From the IMG/VR virus record IMGVR_UViG_3300016472_000494: a DNA stretch of 16,992 nucleotides; one strand, given 5' to 3'. Each line of letters begins with the position of its first letter. Within the stretch, counting starts at the first letter, position 1. Positions 3,841 through 16,992 of the stretch are shown in pieces. Made by a program: the position numbers and the translations under genes. The notes below the pieces were generated by a model that was not told the DNA's origin, did not search any database, and saw only the letters and a program-made list of their open reading frames with translations. Origin of the DNA: a virus (lineage: Duplodnaviria; Heunggongvirae; Uroviricota; Caudoviricetes).

Positions 3841-4061
3841 TGAACCTGGCATCTGTTAGTATTAATAGACTATTTGCTGATGCCGTTTATGCTGCATACA
3901 GGAAGAAGCGTTACGGCATTAAAAAATGCAGGGTAACGTATAGCGCTGACATGTTGAGTGATCTCAAAGAGATTCATAAAAGAGCGTTAGAGATGAAATC
4001 TTGTGACAGGAACTTTTGTTGTGGGCTTTCTACCATTGAAGAAAAAATTAAGACTTTGTAA
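3840..4061 (+). CDS. Small virion-associated protein, possibly tail hub B-like
   Basis: 73 aa, coupled by TAATG on both sides. FADAVYAAYRKKRYGIKKC helix and a CC motif. Function inferred from position only. Confidence 0.55.
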   Translation: MNLASVSINRLFADAVYAAYRKKRYGIKKCRVTYSADMLSDLKEIHKRALEMKSCDRNFCCGLSTIEEKIKTL

Positions 4062-5632
4062 TGATACCTGTCAATACTAATACTTCTGTAAAGGCAAAGG
4101 ACGCATGCATGCCTGTGTCATCTACATGTGTTATCTGGAATGGTCCAGACATACCTTGCATTAATCTTTGCCAAGGAGATTCTATTGACATTGTGTTGCA
4201 TCAACTTGCTGAACTACTTTGTGAGAGTACGACAGGTGTTATTGATGTGACGTCTCTTGACTTTAAATGTCTTGTTGAACAAAATCAGCAAAATCCTGAT
4301 ACGTTACTTGAAGTATTGCAGGCTTTAATAAACAAAATCTGCGATATTGAAGATAATTGCTGTGGTGGTGAAGTAGGACCTGCACCGGTTACACCAATAC
4401 CACTGCCGTCATGTCTTTATTTCACCCAAAATGGAGATCAGGTAACCCAGTTACTTCCAAACGCGTACAGCGCATATCTTGCTGATAGGATATGCACAAT
4501 ACTTACCACCATTGCGAGTGTACAGTCAGCGCTTACATCTCTTACCACAAGAGTTACAACTATTGAAAATACGTTGGAGGGAATAGGAGGGGGGACTCCC
4601 GCGAGTATAACAGTTACCACACAGTGTGCAAGTGGCAACTCGCCAGGGTTGGTACTTCCTATTGCACAAGCTTTTTCTAATTTTGAGCAAAAATTTTGCC
4701 AGCTGCATTCTGTACTGGGCAGTCTTTCATCATTAAACGCTGCTATCAACCTGGAATGTCCAGATCTTGACCAAGCTAATCAACTCTGCGACACAGAGCA
4801 AACAATGTCTCAGTTGCCTGGTTGGGTGTCAAATCCAACCACTATTGCTAGCACAATTGTCAACATGTGGTTAACTATCTGTGACATGCGTTGCGCAATG
4901 CAAAATTTGATTAGTGGTGGAGGCGGCATAGAATGTGTGCCACTTCCCCCTACCAACGTGCAAATTGCTGAACTCTACGCAAATGGTTGTAAGGTTACAT
5001 GGAATCAACCACAAACAGGTTCTTTTGAAGACCCTGTTGCTTATGAAGTTACAATAACAGAGTGGAACGGAACAACTACTGTTGGCGTTCCAATTGCTTC
5101 TGCTGAGTTAAGTCATCCTGCTACAGAGTTTATATTTCAAAACTTGAACGCAGATCCTGTCAAAAATTACATTGTTGAGGTTTATGCGGCTTACAGTTGC
5201 GGTGATTCTTCAAAAGCATTTGTTGTAGGTAAGGTAAAACTAAGCTCAATTCAGTACATATTGAATGTTGCTGATCAAGTAACTACTGCAGAAATTACAT
5301 ACCCTTGTGATGGTCAGAACTTGCCTGCAACACAGCGAGCTACAACAATTACGTTGTACAATCCTGCAAATAATCAAGTAGCCATAAACAACGGAGTATC
5401 AATCACAGCAGTGTTAAGATTTGCTGTTACTGGTGATTGTCCTAACTCTGCTACAGAAGATGTTTTGGTAAACATTCTGACTGGACAGTCTTCAGCAACA
5501 TACACTTACATTGGAGAGCGTATGGTAAAATGTGGTCAAGATCCCTGCACGTCAGAGATCAAAGCATTCCTTTGTGTTGTTTCGCTCAGTTCTACGGCTG
5601 TAGCATTACATCCATCAGTTCCTTTATGTTAG
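4061..5632 (+). CDS. Cys-rich fibre protein with coiled coil and an intact FN3 domain
   Basis: 523 aa. N-terminal CVIWNGPDIPC module; heptad segment ILTTIASVQSALTSLTTRVTTIENTLEG; complete FN3 (CVPLPPTNVQI..CKVTWNQP..YEVTI..NYIVEVYAAYSCG, about 4934-5240); Cys-containing C-terminal beta domain. Confidence 0.7.
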   Translation: MIPVNTNTSVKAKDACMPVSSTCVIWNGPDIPCINLCQGDSIDIVLHQLAELLCESTTGVIDVTSLDFKCLVEQNQQNPDTLLEVLQALINKICDIEDNCCGGEVGPAPVTPIPLPSCLYFTQNGDQVTQLLPNAYSAYLADRICTILTTIASVQSALTSLTTRVTTIENTLEGIGGGTPASITVTTQCASGNSPGLVLPIAQAFSNFEQKFCQLHSVLGSLSSLNAAINLECPDLDQANQLCDTEQTMSQLPGWVSNPTTIASTIVNMWLTICDMRCAMQNLISGGGGIECVPLPPTNVQIAELYANGCKVTWNQPQTGSFEDPVAYEVTITEWNGTTTVGVPIASAELSHPATEFIFQNLNADPVKNYIVEVYAAYSCGDSSKAFVVGKVKLSSIQYILNVADQVTTAEITYPCDGQNLPATQRATTITLYNPANNQVAINNGVSITAVLRFAVTGDCPNSATEDVLVNILTGQSSATYTYIGERMVKCGQDPCTSEIKAFLCVVSLSSTAVALHPSVPLC

Positions 5633-5654: not shown

Positions 5655-5936
5655 ATGTATCCTAATCAAAACTGTCAGCCTTGTCAGCCTGAGTGTCCTC
5701 CAGTAGAGGTTCCATTACCACCTGCTTGTACGGGAGAACCATGCGAGGAGGTAGTTACAGGTCTTTGCGTAAAGTACACAGGGCCAAATATACCATGTGT
5801 AGGTATTACAACTAATATGACATTTAATCAGGTAGTGCAGCTTCTTGCAGCAAAAATCTGTGAATGTTGTGAGGGCGATCCTCCGCCACCACCCTCTTGT
5901 CCTGCTCCAGTATCTCTTACAGCGTCTGCTGTATAG
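5655..5936 (+). CDS. Small Cys/Pro-rich fibre adaptor ending in an orphan FN3 A-strand
   Basis: 93 aa. Contains CVKYTGPNIPC...QLLAAKICE, paralogous to the N-terminus of the 523-aa protein. Ends PPPPPSCPAPVSLTASAV*. Confidence 0.7.
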   Translation: MYPNQNCQPCQPECPPVEVPLPPACTGEPCEEVVTGLCVKYTGPNIPCVGITTNMTFNQVVQLLAAKICECCEGDPPPPPSCPAPVSLTASAV

Positions 5937-5975
5937 TAATATTTTTTTCTTAAAAATTTAAAATTATAAACAATT

Positions 5976-6542
5976 ATGGCAAACATTTCAATTACTTGGA
6001 CTCCAGGTGGAGGCTCCAATGTTACTGGTCAACAGGTTCAACGCAAGACACCTTCTACCAGTTTTACAACAATAGCAACTGTTGGACCAACTGTAAACAG
6101 CTATACTGACACTACAGTTCTTGATAATGTTGTTTACATTTACAGAGTTTTGTCAATTTGCACAACTGGAGGCCCTACTGCTGGAAATGAAGATTGTTCA
6201 GGAGGACTGGTTTGCCCTGAAGGAATTACTGCAACTCCCTCTGGAAATGTTGTTACATTTTCTCTTCCTGCGCTTGGGGACGGTGTGCAATATGATGTGG
6301 TAAGAATTTATCAAGGTCCAAATACATCAAGTCCGTTGGTTCACACGCATTCATTAGACATAAATGGTCCTACAACATTTAGTGTAACACTTTCTTATTC
6401 AACATCTTACTTCTATCAGGTTGTCTTAGAAGCACCTTCATGTCCTGAGATGGGCACTCGTATTTGTGGTGGAAACTGCACAACTGGCCCTGAACCCTCG
6501 TGCCCTGCTCCAACAAATTTGACAGCTGTTCTTACAGACTAA
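5976..6542 (+). CDS. Two-FN3-domain fibre subunit (first domain lacks strand A; C-terminal orphan A-strand)
   Basis: 188 aa. Starts at the B-strand (NISITWTP), followed by GQQVQRK, NSYTDT and YIYRVLSIC. A second FN3-like domain starts at CPEGITAT. Ends SCPAPTNLTAVLTD*. Confidence 0.75.
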   Translation: MANISITWTPGGGSNVTGQQVQRKTPSTSFTTIATVGPTVNSYTDTTVLDNVVYIYRVLSICTTGGPTAGNEDCSGGLVCPEGITATPSGNVVTFSLPALGDGVQYDVVRIYQGPNTSSPLVHTHSLDINGPTTFSVTLSYSTSYFYQVVLEAPSCPEMGTRICGGNCTTGPEPSCPAPTNLTAVLTD

Positions 6543-6559
6543 TGTACAACACATGAACC

Positions 6560-7351
6560 ATGGCGATACAACTTAATATTAATTTTACACCTGTTGCTGG
6601 TGCGACAGGGTATACAGTGTGTCATAGACCACAGGTAACACCTTTGCCAACATATGAATGCACTTCTGTAAACGCAGTTGGTCTTACTCTACCTATCGTT
6701 GTTACATCATACAACAGTAATAGTCTTCAATATAGCACCAATTATGATGTAACGGTGCAGGCTATTTGTGATAATGGTTTGACAAGTTCTGTTGTCTCAA
6801 CAATGGCGTTTAAAATAGAACCTCAACCTCCAACAGGTTTTTGCTATGATGTTAATCTTTTTCAAGAAATAACTCAAGTGTACCCTGGATCTCAAATTCA
6901 ATACACTCCTCCTGGAGGATCTTTGACAAATGTAGACATTTCTGTCTTGCCCTACAATATGAATAACTTTTATCAGATTAATCTCTGCAGTGAAACACCT
7001 ATTATAATTGTAGATAACCAAGGAAACCCTATTACATACACAACAAACGGGTCAGGAATAACAGGAGGTTCTGTGGTTTGTACTCAATCAAGCGATTGTG
7101 GACAGCTTCTGTATAACATGCACACTAATGTAGGTCTTGGAAATGGTAATGGAGCATGCAGTAACCAAACTCAAACTATTTATTCTAACTGTCCTACGTT
7201 TGGAATATCACATGTGGGCTGCTGCCTTTATTACGATAGCGCTGGGCAAGTGCCTGTTACAGGAATGACAAAGTTCTGGATTGATGGTATACTATACGAC
7301 CTGGACCCTATTCAAGGATGCATCACAGGATTCGCTGCAGTTCAGTGTTAA
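6560..7351 (+). CDS. Putative fibre tip / receptor-binding protein (A-strand-less FN3 plus Cys-rich C-terminal domains)
   Basis: 263 aa. Starts QLNINFTPVAGATGYTVCHR...LQYSTNYDVTVQAICDNG (FN3 strands B-G). Continues with beta-rich, Cys/aromatic-rich domains; no terminal CPAP strand. Confidence 0.68.
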   Translation: MAIQLNINFTPVAGATGYTVCHRPQVTPLPTYECTSVNAVGLTLPIVVTSYNSNSLQYSTNYDVTVQAICDNGLTSSVVSTMAFKIEPQPPTGFCYDVNLFQEITQVYPGSQIQYTPPGGSLTNVDISVLPYNMNNFYQINLCSETPIIIVDNQGNPITYTTNGSGITGGSVVCTQSSDCGQLLYNMHTNVGLGNGNGACSNQTQTIYSNCPTFGISHVGCCLYYDSAGQVPVTGMTKFWIDGILYDLDPIQGCITGFAAVQC

Positions 7352-7409
7352 CATGTAAAAAAATATCATTGCGCTGGTTTGTTGGTTTTCCAGTAATATG
7401 ATGAGGGAG

Positions 7410-7441
7410 CCCCTGGTCAAAAGCCAGGGGTCTTCTTTTTT
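7410..7441 (+). terminator. Intrinsic terminator closing the fibre operon
   Basis: CCCCTGG (7410-7416) pairs with CCAGGGG (7424-7430), followed by TCTTCTTTTTT. Confidence 0.85.
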
Positions 7442-7472
7442 ATTGACAGAAACAACTTCTACAAAACATTTG

Positions 7473-7480
7473 TAAATTTG
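7473..7480 (+). promoter_or_regulatory. Bacteroidota-type -7 promoter element candidate (TAnnTTTG)
   Basis: TAAATTTG lies between the terminator and the ATG at 7514. No well-spaced -33 TTTG was found. Confidence 0.4.
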
Positions 7481-7513
7481 TAGAGTTTGCTAACTTAACT
7501 CTATCCTTATCCT

Positions 7514-8857
7514 ATGAACATCATTGAAGCAGTTTATCATAGCCTGAAGCGCAAAAAATCAGCTGATATTGAAGCTGAGCGCCTGGGTATACCTTTGAGC
7601 CAGTATCAAAGAATAAGAAGTGAGATCATCACAGCAATCAACAAAGTAGGCCAGCAGATGGATGATATCATCCTAAAGCTGGTACAAAACAATCTTTCTG
7701 GCGCCAAATCAGAGCTTTCTGCAGAAGAACAGCTTTTTGAAATGGAACAGCAGCTGGGCATTACAGGTGATATGCGCCATCATGCTGCCAAACCTACTTC
7801 TGTGGTAGAAGTACATGAGGACCTGGAAAGCGGTACCTCTAAGATCACCGGTATCTCTGCTACAGAGCCTCGCAGTGCAGAAGAGATTATCAAGATCCTT
7901 AAGATAGATACTACCAAGTGGAAGCTTTCGCAGTACTGGAACAAAGAAAAAGGTACTAAGTGGCTTGTATCAGCGCTGGTGACCAGGATCCCACAGGCAG
8001 AGCAGGTGCAGAACAACTTTTTAGAACTGCTTTCAGAATACAAACTTCCTCAGTTTGAGCCCATTGACCCCGCAGCTTTCTGGATTAACGCCACGTCTCC
8101 AGAAAGAGTTTGCGGGGTTCTTTCTTTACAGGACCTGCACTTTGGCAAAGTGGGGAATGAAGACATGGGTGAGATCTTGAAAAACTCTATTGAGTACCTG
8201 GTAGCCAAGGGTTACAAGAACTACATGATGGAAAAAGTGATCATGATCATTGGTCCTGATACGCTCAACATGGACACGTTCTCTGGAACCACTACCAAAG
8301 GCACACCGGTGGAGAACTCAGAAATGGCCACAGAAGCGTACTTGAAAGCCTTTGAAGCGCTATCATGGACGATTGCTCACGTCAGACAGTTTTGTGAGAA
8401 CCTTGAAGTGGTGTTTATTTCAGGAAACCACGACAGATTGTCTTCTTTTCACCTGTTGCACGCGCTGTCACAGACATTCAAAGAATGGCCCAACACAGTG
8501 TTCAATATTGACTACGCAGAACGAAAAGTGATCACCTATGGGGACAACATGCTTTGTTTTGAACACGGGGACGTCACCGCTAAGAATAACCCTTTGGTCT
8601 ATGCTGTAGAGTACCCCCAGCAATGGGGTGCTTCCAAGCACCGCATGCTCTATACAGGACACTATCATGGACGCAAAACCAAAGAGGTTATTACAGAAAA
8701 CGAAGAACATGGCTTTATTTCCAGGATCATACCTGCATTGACCAACTCAGACTATTATCATTATCACAACAAGTTTGTAGGCAACAAGCGTTCAGCAATG
8801 TTGCATTTGCATGAAGCTGATAAAGGTTTGATATCAGAGTTTGTATACACTGTGTAA
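7514..8857 (+). CDS. Calcineurin-like metallophosphoesterase with an N-terminal helical/HTH-like region
   Basis: 447 aa. Motifs DLHFG, (G)PD, GNHD, HGD and GHYH occur in canonical order. N-terminal EAERLGIPLSQYQRIR is HTH-like. Confidence 0.85.
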   Translation: MNIIEAVYHSLKRKKSADIEAERLGIPLSQYQRIRSEIITAINKVGQQMDDIILKLVQNNLSGAKSELSAEEQLFEMEQQLGITGDMRHHAAKPTSVVEVHEDLESGTSKITGISATEPRSAEEIIKILKIDTTKWKLSQYWNKEKGTKWLVSALVTRIPQAEQVQNNFLELLSEYKLPQFEPIDPAAFWINATSPERVCGVLSLQDLHFGKVGNEDMGEILKNSIEYLVAKGYKNYMMEKVIMIIGPDTLNMDTFSGTTTKGTPVENSEMATEAYLKAFEALSWTIAHVRQFCENLEVVFISGNHDRLSSFHLLHALSQTFKEWPNTVFNIDYAERKVITYGDNMLCFEHGDVTAKNNPLVYAVEYPQQWGASKHRMLYTGHYHGRKTKEVITENEEHGFISRIIPALTNSDYYHYHNKFVGNKRSAMLHLHEADKGLISEFVYTV

Positions 8858-9507: not shown

Positions 9508-10179
9508 ATGATTACTATATCAGAAGCTGTATCTAGAGTACGTAACATCATAAAATCTGTAAAGCAAGATGCTTTTGTGACTGACAGGTTTTTGTATTCG
9601 CTGATCATGAAGCATGCAAAACTTTTAATGCGTCGTCAGGATAATCTGAACCGCATTATGAAGTTTAACTCTGTTTTTCAAGTGCTTGACTTTGTTGAAC
9701 TTATAGAAGTTGACCGGGCTCAAGCTGATTGTCACTGCATTACTTCAGACTGTTACATAAAACGCACCAAAGAAAAGCTTCCAGCAATGATAGAAGGTTA
9801 TTATGGACCTCTAATTAGGTCTGTAACCTCTATTGATTTTTCTGAGGAACTCACTCCCACTTTTCCTACTACTTATGAGCAGATGAGTCGCCAAAAAACC
9901 TTTAAGTACAACAAAAAGAAATACTACTGGTTTCTTAACGGTTATCTCTACTTTCCAAATCTTGAGTGGGATGCAATACGTATAGAAGGTGTATTTGAAG
10001 GTGACATCAGCCAATATAATTGTACAACTTCTGACAATTGTGTTTCTGTTCAGAATAAGACTATCAATGTTCCTGAATTTTTGTTTTCAGAAATTGAACA
10101 ACTTGTCTTGAGAGATCTTGGAGTAATGCTTCAAATACCTCAGGATACTCAGCAAGATAACAGACACGTGGCACGATAA
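9508..10179 (+). CDS. Tail ring protein, crAss gp40-like
   Basis: 223 aa. QDAFVTDRFLYSLI, FQVLDFVELIEV, RTKEKLP, GYLYF, GVFE and the C-terminal LFSEIEQLVLRDL..P.D..D follow the recalled gp40 ring pattern. Confidence 0.75.
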   Translation: MITISEAVSRVRNIIKSVKQDAFVTDRFLYSLIMKHAKLLMRRQDNLNRIMKFNSVFQVLDFVELIEVDRAQADCHCITSDCYIKRTKEKLPAMIEGYYGPLIRSVTSIDFSEELTPTFPTTYEQMSRQKTFKYNKKKYYWFLNGYLYFPNLEWDAIRIEGVFEGDISQYNCTTSDNCVSVQNKTINVPEFLFSEIEQLVLRDLGVMLQIPQDTQQDNRHVAR

Positions 10180-10191
10180 ACAAGTTAAGCA

Positions 10192-11286
10192 ATGATGACT
10201 GAAGTACAATACAGAAACTTTGACGATGTTCTTGACAGTGTCAGGATTGATCTAAGAAGCTTTGATCTTGAGGGTATGATTGATGCTCAACAGCTCATCA
10301 AGGTTGCCATAAGAGTGAATTACGAACTTGGCCTTAGGGTTAATCCTTCGCGTTCAAAAGCTATAGAGATACACAAAGGCAAGGGCAAATTGCCTAACGA
10401 CTTTTACGTACTCAACTTTGCGCTGCTTTGCGAAGGACATAACGTGCATGACATAGAGCATCCTGACAAAACAAAAACTTATACAGAAGGGTTGCTGGAA
10501 GGTGCTGCTATGGGTCAACAGTCTGCGTTTTATGCACTTGGAAACGTAGTACAGCAACAGACAGTTATTCAAACCCTTGCGCCCGGTGTTAACAATATTA
10601 GTCATGGTCTAAACTCTCAGAACCTTATAGTGCAAGTTATAGGGCCTGATGATACTATTCTTTCATTCAACATACTTACACCAACTACGTCGCTGCTTCA
10701 AATTATTTCTGATGCTCCTGTCAGTATTTCTAATGCTAAGATTATCATCATGGCATCAAGACCTGTTTTTACAGGAGTAAATTCAGCTGTCATTGAGCAA
10801 GATCATGATGGAAAGCACATTATGGCATATAACACGCCAGGAAGACGACATACTTACAATGTGCTTACACCTATGCGCATTGAAAAATCCAAAAGTGTAT
10901 CACCAGACTGCATCAATATTAACAGTAATGACTGGCATACAGCTGTTATAAAGAATGGTTTTTTGGTGACCAACTTTGATGAGGGTGTTGTGTACATAAA
11001 CTATCAGTCTTTAATGGAGGATGACGATGGAAACCTTATGGTGATGGATCATCCTTTAGTAAACGAGTTCTATGAATATGCAATCAAACAGCGCATTTAT
11101 GAGAACCTGTACATGAGTGGTGAAAATGTGGCAAATTTCATGCAACTAGTAGAGCAAAGACTCAAGGCGGCCAGAAATAATGCACTATCCTTTGTTAATA
11201 CACCAGATTTCAGAGAACTTAAGCAGGTGTGGGAAATGAACCGCAAGGCTCAATACCACAAGTACTACAACATGTTTAAGAGATAA
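10192..11286 (+). CDS. Tail ring / tubular protein, crAss gp43-like (P22 gp4-like), with internal insertion
   Basis: 364 aa (start may be 10195). GKLPNDF..L, GFLVTNFDEGVVYINYQSLMEDDDGNLMVMDHP...EYAIKQRI and TPDFREL match the ring-1 pattern. Confidence 0.78.
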   Translation: MMTEVQYRNFDDVLDSVRIDLRSFDLEGMIDAQQLIKVAIRVNYELGLRVNPSRSKAIEIHKGKGKLPNDFYVLNFALLCEGHNVHDIEHPDKTKTYTEGLLEGAAMGQQSAFYALGNVVQQQTVIQTLAPGVNNISHGLNSQNLIVQVIGPDDTILSFNILTPTTSLLQIISDAPVSISNAKIIIMASRPVFTGVNSAVIEQDHDGKHIMAYNTPGRRHTYNVLTPMRIEKSKSVSPDCININSNDWHTAVIKNGFLVTNFDEGVVYINYQSLMEDDDGNLMVMDHPLVNEFYEYAIKQRIYENLYMSGENVANFMQLVEQRLKAARNNALSFVNTPDFRELKQVWEMNRKAQYHKYYNMFKR

Positions 11287-14600: not shown

Positions 14601-16329
14601 AAGTTCTATAACAGGGGCTTTGACAGTAAAAAATAGTTATGCGTATTTGTTTCACAATGGTGTGAGAGATTTCTTTACAGAGAGTGAACTGAACATGGCA
14701 TATCGCGACTATGGTCAGGAATCTTATGAGAAATTCTATGATGTTTATGGAAATTCCTTTAATGATTTGAGCACAATGTTCAGATCTGATCTTATCACAA
14801 AACCAATCTTTTTTAAGTATGACTTATCTCTCAGCGCATCAAAACTTTTCAACAACTTTGCATCATGGGCTTCTATACTCCCCCGTGACTACGACCCTAG
14901 GCTATACACCACATGCTTTGAATATTACCCTGATAGAGGAATATACTCCCTCCAACAGCAGTCTGGACTTAGACGAGATAATTGGAGAAATTATCTTGCG
15001 CTTAACTACAAAGACTTCTCAGGAAAAATAAGTACAATTAAGAATCTTAATGCTACAGGCGCTATGATTCTTTTTGAGGATGCTGAACCTGTAATGTTTG
15101 TAGGTGTAGATCAGCTTCAGACAACAGGGGGTGTTAAACTGACCATTGGCGATGGAGGTCTGTTTCAAGGAAACATGCAAGCTCTTGTTAATGCTGATGA
15201 CACCATTGGATATGCAAGTAGCATATCATCTAGGGCAGCAGTTAACACACCTCATGGTTTATTTTTTGTTTCACAGCAGTCAGGCAAAATTATGCAGTAT
15301 GCTGGAGGAATGACGGAAATTTCACGCAATGGTATGAAGTTTTGGTTTAATGAAAATCTTCCCAGCAAGTTTTTAAAAGCATATCCTGACTATCCATACT
15401 ATGACAACCCTGTTGTTGGAATTGGTATACAAGCTGTATATGATCCACAATATGAACTTGTGTATTTTACAAAGCGTGACTATGTGCCGTTAAGAAACGA
15501 CCTGATGTTTGATGATCCTTCAGGTGTGCCTTACTTTGTGACTGTGTCTGGTTCTGGAAATAATCCTGTAATTACCAAAACTTTTTGTACTTTTGACAAT
15601 CCTGCAGTATTCAAGCCTTGTCACTGGACAGTGAGTTATGATCCTAAAAATAAGCAGTGGATAAGTTTTCATGATTGGAAACCAACTCTGTTAATACCTT
15701 CCTTTAGACATTTTCTTTCAATTAAAGACAATGCTATTTGGAGACATAACAACCGCTGGGACAGTTATTGCAATTACTATGGCACAAACTACGCATGGGA
15801 AATTGAGTATCCTGTGGTTACGCCAAACGCTGTAACCACGCTTAGAAGTGTAGAATACACCTTGGATGTTTACAAGTTTTACAATGACGGGAAAGATTTT
15901 CATCATGTTATTGATGAGAATTTTGACAGGGCTGTGCTTTACAATTCTGAACAGATTTCAGGGCTTCTTAAATTAAGAATTAAAGGCAAGAATGCTCCAT
16001 TAGACTTGGTCAACTACCCACAAATTTCTACCAGTGGTATAGAGATTCTGTTTTCAAAAGAAGAAAACAAGTACAGGTTTAATCAGTTTTGGGATGTTAC
16101 AAAAGATCGCGGTGAATTTACAACTGCGCGTGAACCAATGTGGAATACAGAATGTGCTGGTGTTCAGAAGATTATTAACCCTGACTACATTGATTACTTT
16201 AAGTCACCACTGGAGCGCAAGAAGTTTCGTCACTACGGCAACAACATTATCCTGCGCAAAAACGTCAGTGGTGACAAAAAGATGATCTTAAAACTCACAA
16301 ATAGCAAGCATCTCAACAGCTCCAGGTAA
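11662..16329 (+). CDS. Muzzle / tail stabilisation protein (crAss gp44-like, P22 gp10-like)
   Basis: 1555 aa following ring 1. Motifs FHKGMVKD, YMRDEVYSFFIRW, GYEILRG, FHSPE, FGGDVYINRYT, propeller-like C-terminal repeats and W.SFHDW.P are typical of crAss-like muzzle proteins. Confidence 0.85.
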   Translation: MSENFSKSSVTETNSFHKGMVKDYTDIYMSEGLWLNAVNAINNSHYGESGSIGNEPSNEFCATVPYSIIGFANISQTRWVIFSTNDSSSEIGIFDESDCSYSLVVNAACLNFKKTHMISAVVKGNYDCTTSVYFADNLNPDRVLNLDRVPYKVIGDANPDPNCYEPLYSEELDCDALRLHPLVTQPCVNVNKAQGAGQLNNGSYIACVAYSENGVRLTDYSIPSNPQAIWDHSGIGGSIDITVTNLDQNFEEYELVVIAVVNQQTIAKKIGYYSIRQSKVTLDLFLQSLPTVDISQIPLKSVVYEKSEKMFEVNDYLIRTGVTTQPYFNYQPLANQIRASWVAAEYPVDYYWGGGNTVGYMRDEVYSFFIRWVYRTGARSASYHIPGRAANSLDTTTVSGPDLLTPSQNKVWQVYDTSTRYNAGGTTADGGVIIAKGDMSYWESTERYPDDKEPIWDTLCGKPIRHHKMPSNETIHIHNQGGTKIIVLGVEFYNIAHPVDENNQPITDIIGYEILRGSREGNRTIVAKGLFNNMLEYNLAGNNSRKGLIQNYPYNDLRPDNFLTDDYSILDSGSANPGTIESASKLSNYKRDIFSFHSPETNFVKPYLGGNYVKLYTEERGTVTGRYEFPEKHPKHVLLSDGAFAIAAVVGAGIALLNALGKTTYSGTVEAGVVVAGASTGSSTESGPATILPALIAGAVQNPVGAGVNAVGVGLLAASSLYYFGQGIDQVLEVLRNLSKDRQYMLQYNSHGFYSSFSNVSNSSVPGGLQKSIRRQIVPSSAKYVGSGLHDFDATYRINNLNRNKYVALKLSSTVSDPVSGQDNTKHRVKDGGVTHSEPLKNEITTTTVAYYGAVKVDFQNQYGQLSSVVQIPTGSCVFLTSSETEQRFTSGPIFGGDVYINRYTEKNPYMFFNTWMYDMPNRTEYDYRNYVNGPVPRYWVNFEKYDAQDFTIRVFPNGIFTLPIIDINTPSDFHRLDRPSSITGALTVKNSYAYLFHNGVRDFFTESELNMAYRDYGQESYEKFYDVYGNSFNDLSTMFRSDLITKPIFFKYDLSLSASKLFNNFASWASILPRDYDPRLYTTCFEYYPDRGIYSLQQQSGLRRDNWRNYLALNYKDFSGKISTIKNLNATGAMILFEDAEPVMFVGVDQLQTTGGVKLTIGDGGLFQGNMQALVNADDTIGYASSISSRAAVNTPHGLFFVSQQSGKIMQYAGGMTEISRNGMKFWFNENLPSKFLKAYPDYPYYDNPVVGIGIQAVYDPQYELVYFTKRDYVPLRNDLMFDDPSGVPYFVTVSGSGNNPVITKTFCTFDNPAVFKPCHWTVSYDPKNKQWISFHDWKPTLLIPSFRHFLSIKDNAIWRHNNRWDSYCNYYGTNYAWEIEYPVVTPNAVTTLRSVEYTLDVYKFYNDGKDFHHVIDENFDRAVLYNSEQISGLLKLRIKGKNAPLDLVNYPQISTSGIEILFSKEENKYRFNQFWDVTKDRGEFTTAREPMWNTECAGVQKIINPDYIDYFKSPLERKKFRHYGNNIILRKNVSGDKKMILKLTNSKHLNSSR

Positions 16330-16992
16330 TGAAAGGCAATAAGGCAGTGCTTATGAAGTTTCTCTCCACTCAGGCGCAAAAGCTTGCTGGTGAGGATAAC
16401 GTCTTTGTAGACAAAAGCTCTATTGAAGGACAGGGTCTTTTTGCAAACAAAGGTTTCAAAAAAGGTGAGATCATAGGTCTTGCTCACCAGCAGGGACAAC
16501 CTGTAGGACTTACAGGAAACTTTCACAACCATTCATCTTCACCCAATGCTGTCAGTGTAAAAAAAGGTAGCAATCGCTTTCTGGTGGCTGCAAAGAACCT
16601 TCCTGCCGGTGCAGAGATCACATCAGACTACCGCATGCAACCAGAGCTGGAGCAACCTTCTGCTAACTGGATGCAACGTGGTGGATTAACATTTCAACCG
16701 TATTACACGCCTGCTGCTGAATCTACAGGTGCAAACTATACACCAACAATGACTATGCAAGCTGCTGAAAAACTCAAAGCACAACGTGATGCACAGGAGT
16801 TAGCTAGAAGAAGACAGGCAATACAGGCTAGTCAAGCAGCAGCTTCAAAACCTCTTAGAAAACGTTTGACACCAGAAAACTTAGCTCAAGAAACTGGTGC
16901 TACCGGTGATAAACTCAGATTCTTTCCAAATGACCCTGATAGTTTTATTGATGACTATTTAAACCCCTTAAAAATGGTGGGAGATATGGCAT
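16329..16992 (+). CDS. SET-domain-containing protein at the cargo/ejection-protein position; 3' truncated, absent from the ORF track
   Basis: Starts at the TAATG overlap and has no stop through 16992 (221 codons). MKGNKAVLMKFLSTQAQKLAGEDNVFVDKSSIEGQGLFANKGFKKGEIIG...GNFHNHSSSPNA...LVAAKNLPAGAEITSDYRMQPELEQPSANWMQRGG... shows SET motifs GxGLFA, NHSxxPN and EITxDY. Confidence 0.85.
   Translation, partial: MKGNKAVLMKFLSTQAQKLAGEDNVFVDKSSIEGQGLFANKGFKKGEIIGLAHQQGQPVGLTGNFHNHSSSPNAVSVKKGSNRFLVAAKNLPAGAEITSDYRMQPELEQPSANWMQRGGLTFQPYYTPAAESTGANYTPTMTMQAAEKLKAQRDAQELARRRQAIQASQAAASKPLRKRLTPENLAQETGATGDKLRFFPNDPDSFIDDYLNPLKMVGDMA

Follow-up and report, generated by a model that had tools for sequence, protein, structure and literature searches.

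Split FN3 domains as probable joints of a crAss-like phage fibre encoded by three genes

Completion of an immunoglobulin (Ig)-like fold by a strand of a neighbouring chain is known from several systems. In chaperone-usher pili (Fim, Pap), the strand of a neighbour completes the incomplete Ig-like fold of the next subunit, giving a polar chain with a tip that only accepts. In the type V pili of Bacteroidota (FimA, Mfa1), a C-terminal strand fills the groove of the N-terminal strand in the next subunit; the likely hosts of crAss-like phages belong to the same phylum. SpyTag/SpyCatcher is an engineered split CnaB2 Ig-like domain, in which a strand on a separate chain docks and locks covalently. 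Among phages, the adhesion device of Lactococcus phage Tuc2009 has a C-terminal beta-hairpin of BppU that completes the sheet of domain 2 of BppA, forming a composite titin-like domain (PMC4742702). In the split nozzle of the Pseudomonas podophage A1002, incomplete beta-propeller blades are completed in trans by strands of another gene product (PMC13730344). Here, we analyse a 16,992-nucleotide (nt) stretch of DNA (hereafter, the window), which is part of a 26.5-kb IMG/VR virus record (IMGVR_UViG_3300016472_000494) and in which fibronectin type III (FN3) domains are cut at the boundaries between consecutive genes. We consider it probable that the three proteins concerned, of 93, 188 and 263 amino acids (aa), join head-to-tail via composite FN3 domains into one virion fibre of a crAss-like phage.

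In the assembly that we propose, the upstream protein of each pair would carry, directly past the last strand of its final domain, a Cys and about 11 residues serving as strand A. The downstream protein, which begins at strand B, would provide strands B to G, and the tail would fill the open edge of its sandwich, i.e., complement the missing strand in trans. The fibre would run from the 93-aa protein (anchor) through the 188-aa protein (adaptor) to the 263-aa protein (tip). The donor and acceptor Cys would lie at the same pole of the composite domain, and a disulfide would probably form between them once the particle is in an oxidising medium. Such joints matter because fibres decide what a phage sticks to. 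Fibres are also the least resolved part of the virion in crAss-like phages, those of crAss001 being too flexible to resolve by cryo-electron microscopy. The head and tail fibres of crAss001 attach by short N-terminal segments (PMC10172136).

Two FN3 domains cut between genes

The C-terminal tail of the 93-aa protein opens with Ser-Cys-Pro-Ala-Pro. The 188-aa protein begins with Met-Ala-Asn-Ile-Ser-Ile-Thr-Trp-Thr-Pro and ends in a tail of the same kind, and the 263-aa protein begins with Met-Ala-Ile-Gln-Leu-Asn-Ile-Asn-Phe-Thr-Pro. An earlier note on this DNA, made from the letters alone, had described these tails, the starts at strand B and the positions of the Cys; the open reading frames (ORFs), their ends and starts, and the four Cys codons are all as it gave them (Table 1). 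It was also right that the uninterrupted FN3 domains of the locus, in the 523-aa protein encoded just upstream and in the second domain of the 188-aa protein, keep their Cys pair in one chain. The Pfam fn3 profile matches residues 7-74 of the 263-aa protein (E 2.7e-4; 21.5 bits for a cut-off of 25), and only with profile positions 18-74. Since this match begins at position 18, strand A is missing and the domain begins at strand B. The 523-aa protein serves as context and internal control: residues 296-383 match the profile in full length (PF00041; 26.6 bits for the same 25-bit cut-off), and both FN3 Cys lie within the one chain. These two proteins alone matched fn3, and the 93-aa and 188-aa proteins had no Pfam match. 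The missing strand can nevertheless be recognised upstream, where the earlier note had placed it: MAFFT aligns the tails of the 93-aa family with two parts of the 188-aa protein, its tail 2 and strand A of its intact second domain, and an uninterrupted relative and a structural model (see below) put strand A at the C terminus encoded by the upstream gene.

The earlier note had proposed to look for the same arrangement in related phages. Relatives were found by word search, an exhaustive HMMER search with the 263-aa protein, contig look-up and an alignment-based scan of IMG/VR. A scripted census then covered 15 loci with 165 ORFs; there are near-duplicates among these loci, which represent about 10 independent crAss-like lineages. 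A C-terminal tail motif (Cys-x3-[TSVL]-[GNDS]-[LVI] plus 4-16 residues at the ORF end) was present in 31 of the 165 ORFs, and in all 31 cases, across all 15 loci, the next ORF lies 1-62 nt further on and starts at strand B (30 starts recognised by a regular expression, the one in locus L028 by eye). This pattern is far beyond chance. The modal length of the tail after the Cys is 11 residues, and the ATG is conserved at every strand-B start. The sequences between tail and start are unrelated, and frame offsets of 0, 1 and 2 all occur. Both splits are retained in homologues at 93, 73, 66 and 33-46% protein identity, from independent assemblies. Both cuts also stand in three IMG/VR contigs of about 92% identity, in which the first spacer is 34 nt long instead of 39 and the frame relation is hence changed; across the relatives, this spacer ranges from 8 to 62 nt with a variable frame offset.

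The polar roles that the earlier note assigned (donor only, acceptor and donor, acceptor only) are also conserved. Homologues of the 93-aa protein range from 91 to 555 aa and have a common N-domain, and every C terminus seen among them ends in a donor tail. The 188-aa family is compact (177-190 aa), with M1, W8, C62, C80, C164 and C176 invariant. Distant homologues of the 263-aa protein, of 164-246 aa, all begin at strand B, and the tip gene of L007 and L019 encodes the remainder of the FN3 domain only (81-85 aa). The acceptors fall into two distinct types, Trp and Phe, each of them conserved. A fibre has a single cut in L028, two cuts in the window and three or more in L023 and L025. The chains of the relatives are hetero-chains with a defined number of links, from two to at least three. 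With the cuts placed between genes, different anchors (91-555 aa) and tips (81-335 aa) could be exchanged while the adaptor stays conserved, and joining through a shared domain would explain how this can happen without redesign of the interface.

The relatives also vary in other ways. In first-gene homologues of 234-555 aa (L025:1802-3469, L026:2005-3468, P0034 and P0036-P0038), the region that separates the N-domain from the donor tail holds three to five thrombospondin type-1 repeats (TSP1_spondin, E 1.5e-56), which is unusual for a phage fibre. At L025:4073-5381, a single donor is followed by two Phe-type acceptor proteins in a row (178 and 255 aa). At L023/L024:3501-4070, a Trp-type acceptor (189 aa) lacks a donor gene immediately upstream, and another chain, of 407 aa followed by 269 aa, lies nearby.

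The earlier note had held that a homologue with one continuous gene would count against split domains. With the read-through protein as query, no fused homologue of junction 1 was found among close relatives, where coverage never spanned the junction. A distant crAss-like relative, protein P0041 of L028, has the Trp-type FN3 domain of junction 1 uninterrupted. It reads, in order, Cys, 11 residues, Gly-Gly and a strand-B motif ending in Trp-Thr-Pro-Gly-Gly-Gly, and FN3 domains of the PDB align with it from strand A on. Its Gly-Gly turn stands at the site of the stop, spacer and Met-Ala of the window; the stop and start thus replace the A-B turn. P0041 itself ends in a donor tail, and a 408-aa protein begins at strand B 1 nt later.

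Structure prediction of the pairs, also suggested by the earlier note, gave results of different weight at the two junctions. For junction 1, the first two ORFs, which share a frame, were translated across the stops, and residues 1-275 of this fusion were modelled with AlphaFold2. Without an alignment the model is uninformative (mean predicted local distance difference test score, pLDDT, 43.7). With an alignment of 17 rows, rebuilt without the 93-aa family tails that MAFFT had misplaced, both FN3 domains have pLDDT above 90 and the artificial linker below 50. Within the 93-aa protein, a beta strand spans residues 86-93, with a mean pLDDT of 79 for residues 81-90, and domain 1 has seven strands including the tail, as expected of the A-B-C-C'-E-F-G sandwich of FN3. 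In VIA-align comparisons, single FN3 structures cover model residues 79/83 to 184/188 (85-96 residues aligned; root mean square deviation, rmsd, 1.9-2.6; Z 11.2-13.3). With 4u3h, 6hyf, 8fn9 and 6pog, the alignment spans 87-96 residues (rmsd 1.9-2.4, Z 11.2-11.9) and starts at residue 79-83, i.e., in the tail. In this model, tail 1 is thus predicted to occupy the strand-A position of a complete FN3 domain, which speaks to fit and not to affinity, the chains being tethered. At junction 2 a complex was predicted instead, because the reading frames differ, using ESMFold2 and alignments of our own for the C-terminal residues 156-188 of the 188-aa protein together with the first 95 residues of the 263-aa protein. 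The interaction prediction score from aligned errors (ipSAE) was 0.56, 0.46 and 0.53 in three runs (median 0.53), and the best of 3 controls gave 0.00. The runs have at least 98% of contacts in common, and the partner pLDDT is at least 70. Among solved complexes, 58 of 80 reached the mark set for ipSAE, as did 2 of 110 mismatched pairs; these counts are rough with user alignments. Both predictions agree with the claim of the earlier note that the strand is supplied in trans; the intermolecular disulfide that it added must be argued from the Cys themselves.

In both families that carry a donor Cys, this residue is invariant; it is C82 in the 93-aa proteins and C176 in the 188-aa proteins. The acceptor Cys, eight residues past the Tyr of strand F, is likewise constant, as C62 in the 188-aa family and as C70 in the 263-aa family. 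In the second, intact domain of the 188-aa protein, C80 and C164 never vary, and intact FN3 domains in these protein families have their Cys pair within one chain. The counts fit as well: a single-domain link of 103 aa in L023 has exactly two Cys, one per junction position, and there are just four in the 180-aa adaptor of L012. In the FN3 topology, strand A starts at the pole where the F-G turn also lies, which makes a bond between donor and acceptor Cys plausible. Invariance and counts together suggest that the two probably form an interchain disulfide. Interchain disulfides stabilise the tail of crAss001 (PMC10172136).

Weighing the fibre and its alternatives

Several points weigh against a fibre joined in this way. 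The presence of the proteins in the virion is argued from gene position and domain types only. The AlphaFold2 test of junction 1 tethers the chains by an artificial linker. The complex score of junction 2, obtained with shallow alignments of our own, falls in a band (up to 0.60) that is rated weak. Tails 1 and 2 are much alike, nearly identical in L026, and the assignment of donors to acceptors is to that extent ambiguous. Finally, no relative was found that had lost both Cys together, which would prove their pairing.

One alternative keeps complementation in trans but abandons the pattern of gene order: the 188-aa protein could form a homopolymeric shaft of variable length, as the earlier note proposed, or pairing could be promiscuous and give mixed fibres. 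Such pairing would suit the near-identity of tails 1 and 2 in L026 and L007, the two strand-B-start tip genes behind one donor in L025, and the acceptor without an adjacent donor in L023 and L024. We nevertheless regard it as unlikely, considering that an acceptor gene lies directly downstream of every one of the 31 donors, that the Trp and Phe acceptor types are distinct and each conserved, and that the longer chains of relatives add different link genes (e.g., the 103-aa link), with no obvious repeat of one. We also considered that the 188-aa protein might complement itself in cis, and rejected this on geometry. In the AlphaFold2 model, 3-8 residues separate the last strand from the next donor Cys; with this short spacing and with the N and C termini of an FN3 domain at opposite poles, the tail cannot reach the acceptor of its own chain.

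A second alternative, which we find quite unlikely, is that the proteins are separate and are not joined via a split domain. The acceptors would then be sandwiches of six strands, and the Cys-bearing tails would dock to the capsid or tail, or would be remnants of a flexible linker. What speaks for it is that the complex score lies in the weak band. But strand A of intact domains is homologous to the tails, which have a modal length of 11 residues and always adjoin a domain lacking that strand; AlphaFold2 puts the tail in the position of that strand, and an FN3 domain without it would expose the edge of its core.

A single polypeptide made from the parts (through readthrough, a frameshift, ribosomal bypass or joining of the RNA), assembly errors and recent decay are all very improbable as explanations of the cuts: the first two ORFs of the window do share a frame, and programmed frameshifts reportedly sometimes add Ig-like domains to phage proteins (Fraser et al. 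2006), but spacer 1 has three in-frame stops (TAG, TAA, TAA), an in-frame TGA precedes the ATG of the third ORF, all frame offsets occur with unrelated spacers of 1-62 nt, the start ATG is always conserved, no take-off/landing codon pair was found, the length of the spacers leaves no room for introns, Rfam had no match, and the same cut appears in more than 10 independent assemblies. The junctions do not fit programmed recoding, which would call for a conserved frame relation, an open overlap or a single leaky stop, and a slippery site or take-off and landing codons. Because neither the spacers nor the frame offsets are constant, stops in frame occur wherever they were checked for and the arrangement is conserved in 31 of 31 cases, we conclude that these are separate genes; readthrough, frameshift, bypass, introns, assembly error and recent decay are ruled out as far as sequence can show.

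A serial fibre assembled in gene order would have implications beyond this phage. Split FN3 joints would predict which adjacent ORFs of metagenomic genomes share one fibre, and they would provide a small natural pair of peptide and domain, possibly self-locking by a disulfide. We also advance, tentatively, a broader possibility: split FN3 domains could be a general plug-and-socket connector system across a broad group of crAss-like phages, in which a tag of Cys plus 11 residues snaps into any FN3 domain lacking strand A and is then locked by a disulfide. If this were true, anchors, adaptors and tips would be mixed, alternative tips could share one adaptor (as in L025), and repeated links could perhaps extend fibres. 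The system would then be a natural, covalently locking counterpart of SpyTag/SpyCatcher, reusable as a tag for protein ligation.

The locus and its surroundings

Table 1. Features of the fibre locus, in window coordinates
Feature	Position	Strand	Description
523-aa paralogous fibre protein	4061..5632	+	Cys-rich N-domain (GPxIPC), coiled-coil-like stretch, one uninterrupted FN3, C-terminal domain
93-aa protein	5655..5936	+	Cys-rich N-domain (putative virion anchor), poly-Pro linker, donor tail
Donor tail 1	5898..5933	+	Cys82 (codon at 5898) plus 11 residues; proposed FN3 strand A for the 188-aa protein
Spacer 1	5937..5975	.	39 nt, AT-rich; TAG stop and two more in-frame TAA codons
188-aa adaptor protein	5976..6542	+	Acceptor FN3 from strand B, intact FN3-like domain 2, donor tail 2
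188-aa acceptor FN3	about 5976-6209	+	Acceptor Cys62 (codon at 6159)
188-aa intact FN3-like domain 2	about 6213-6480	+	Cys80, Cys164
Donor tail 2	6501..6539	+	Cys176 (codon at 6501) plus 12 residues; proposed strand A for the 263-aa protein
Spacer 2	6543..6559	.	17 nt; TGA in the downstream frame 6 nt ahead of the ATG
263-aa tip protein	6560..7351	+	Acceptor FN3 from strand B plus Cys-rich C-terminal domain; without donor tail
263-aa acceptor FN3	about 6560-6823	+	Acceptor Cys70 (codon at 6767)
Operon end	7365..7445	+	Conserved hairpin with invariant loop, then GC-rich hairpin and T-run, terminator-like (about 7400-7445), ending the three-gene operon

The window carries the structural module of a crAss-like phage, with R1 and R2 rings and a giant muzzle-like protein. 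Positions 9508-10179 match CrAss_Ring_2 (E 2e-19) and 10192-11286 match CrAss_Ring_1 (E 5.9e-12); the muzzle-like protein that follows (1555 aa) matches virion-protein PHROGs. The same order of ring and muzzle-like genes is present in L012, L014 and L028. Past the muzzle-like gene, an ORF at 16329-16991 has a SET-domain match (Pfam, E 1.6e-7, above the cut-off). Between the fibre and ring genes, a 447-aa protein (7514-8857), whose synteny is kept in all relatives, matches PHROG 704, "DNA repair exonuclease" (E 2.6e-45), and weakly Metallophos_2. PHROGs gave no family for the 523-, 93-, 188- or 263-aa proteins, and blastn and tblastn searches of GenBank phage records returned nothing for the locus or for the 523-aa protein.

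The trio looks like a paralogue of a single-chain fibre protein that has been cut in three, judging by its neighbour: the 523-aa protein has a complete fn3 match and an N-domain resembling that of the 93-aa protein (BLASTP 3e-6). The 523-aa protein ends at, or a few residues from, a conserved Cys (window 5590-5632). In its counterparts in L025 (218-1786) and L026 (413-1975), this tail, Cys-Pro-Gly-Glu-Ile-Thr-Cys, resembles a strand-A motif cut short. A gap of 22 nt separates the 523-aa gene from the downstream 93-aa gene, whose product has a Cys-rich N terminus, and a further link between the two is possible. At the other end of the chain, the Cys-rich C-terminal domain of the 263-aa protein probably has a role in binding. 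Its last 80 residues or so (7100-7348) form a Cys-rich module without a Pfam family, which recurs at or near the C termini of proteins of 336-1267 aa and 112-169 aa in a representative library and is likely a mobile binding module. A search of the ESM Atlas with this domain gave unnamed viral clusters only, with a score of 0.78, below the useful range.

The hairpin sequence GGTTTGTTGGTTTTCC, directly 3' of the fibre operon, is invariant, and the stem bases that flank it covary (CTGG/CCAG versus AGG/CCT). The same hairpin lies downstream of the tip gene in L007, L011, L012, L014, L019 and L026, and this operon-end element is far more conserved than the flanking proteins (35-66% identity). Rfam had nothing at the gathering score across the window, the operon-end hairpin included, and the downstream spacer gave only a chance snoRNA-like match (E 0.056). 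Between the terminator and the 447-aa gene, at about 7460-7495, a TAAATTTG motif stands inside the short repeat TTGTAAATTTGTAGA; it fits the Bacteroidota -7 promoter consensus, TAnnTTTG. In this spacer, TTTGTA is conserved in five of the seven aligned relatives.

Comparison with described systems

The earlier note knew of no phage fibre built in this way, a statement that Tuc2009 makes too strong. There too, two proteins of an adhesion device share one Ig-like sandwich that is completed by a C-terminal extension (PMC4742702). The Tuc2009 case is a single joint, with a two-strand hairpin as donor, an acceptor domain at the C terminus of the partner and no Cys lock, in a siphophage of a Gram-positive host. 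In contrast, the joints proposed here would donate a single strand A, are cut at the A-B turn, number at least two in series, have both junction Cys invariant and belong to crAss-like podophages. The A1002 nozzle differs in fold and in virion site, and it is not a repeated fibre connector.

Comparison with pili leads to similar distinctions. In chaperone-usher pili, it is the C-terminal G strand that is missing and an N-terminal extension that replaces it; the chains, mostly homopolymeric, depend for their assembly on a periplasmic chaperone and an usher. Here, in contrast, it is strand A that is missing, the donor would be a C-terminal tail, and each link has a different gene. Pfam and PHROGs identified no chaperone or usher families among the proteins of the window, and the locus does not qualify as a chaperone-usher system. 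Type V pilins are lipoproteins from which a protease removes the N-terminal strand before polymerisation, whereas the acceptors described here begin with Met-Ala or Met-Pro straight at strand B and have a plain FN3 fold. They have no signal peptide, hydrophobic leader or lipobox Cys, and the locus does not qualify as a type V pilus either. SpyTag/SpyCatcher is an engineered single pair locked by an isopeptide bond, and the system described here is natural, with a putative disulfide and serial joints.

If the fibre is assembled as we propose, donor-strand complementation would extend from secreted pili to a viral structure assembled in the cytoplasm. Our search of the full-text literature on donor-strand or strand complementation with phage fibres or Crassvirales returned no description of serial split FN3 joints. 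Completion of an Ig-like fold by the strand of a neighbour is thus known; what would be new are serial, probably Cys-locked, split-FN3 connectors in the fibres of crAss-like phages.

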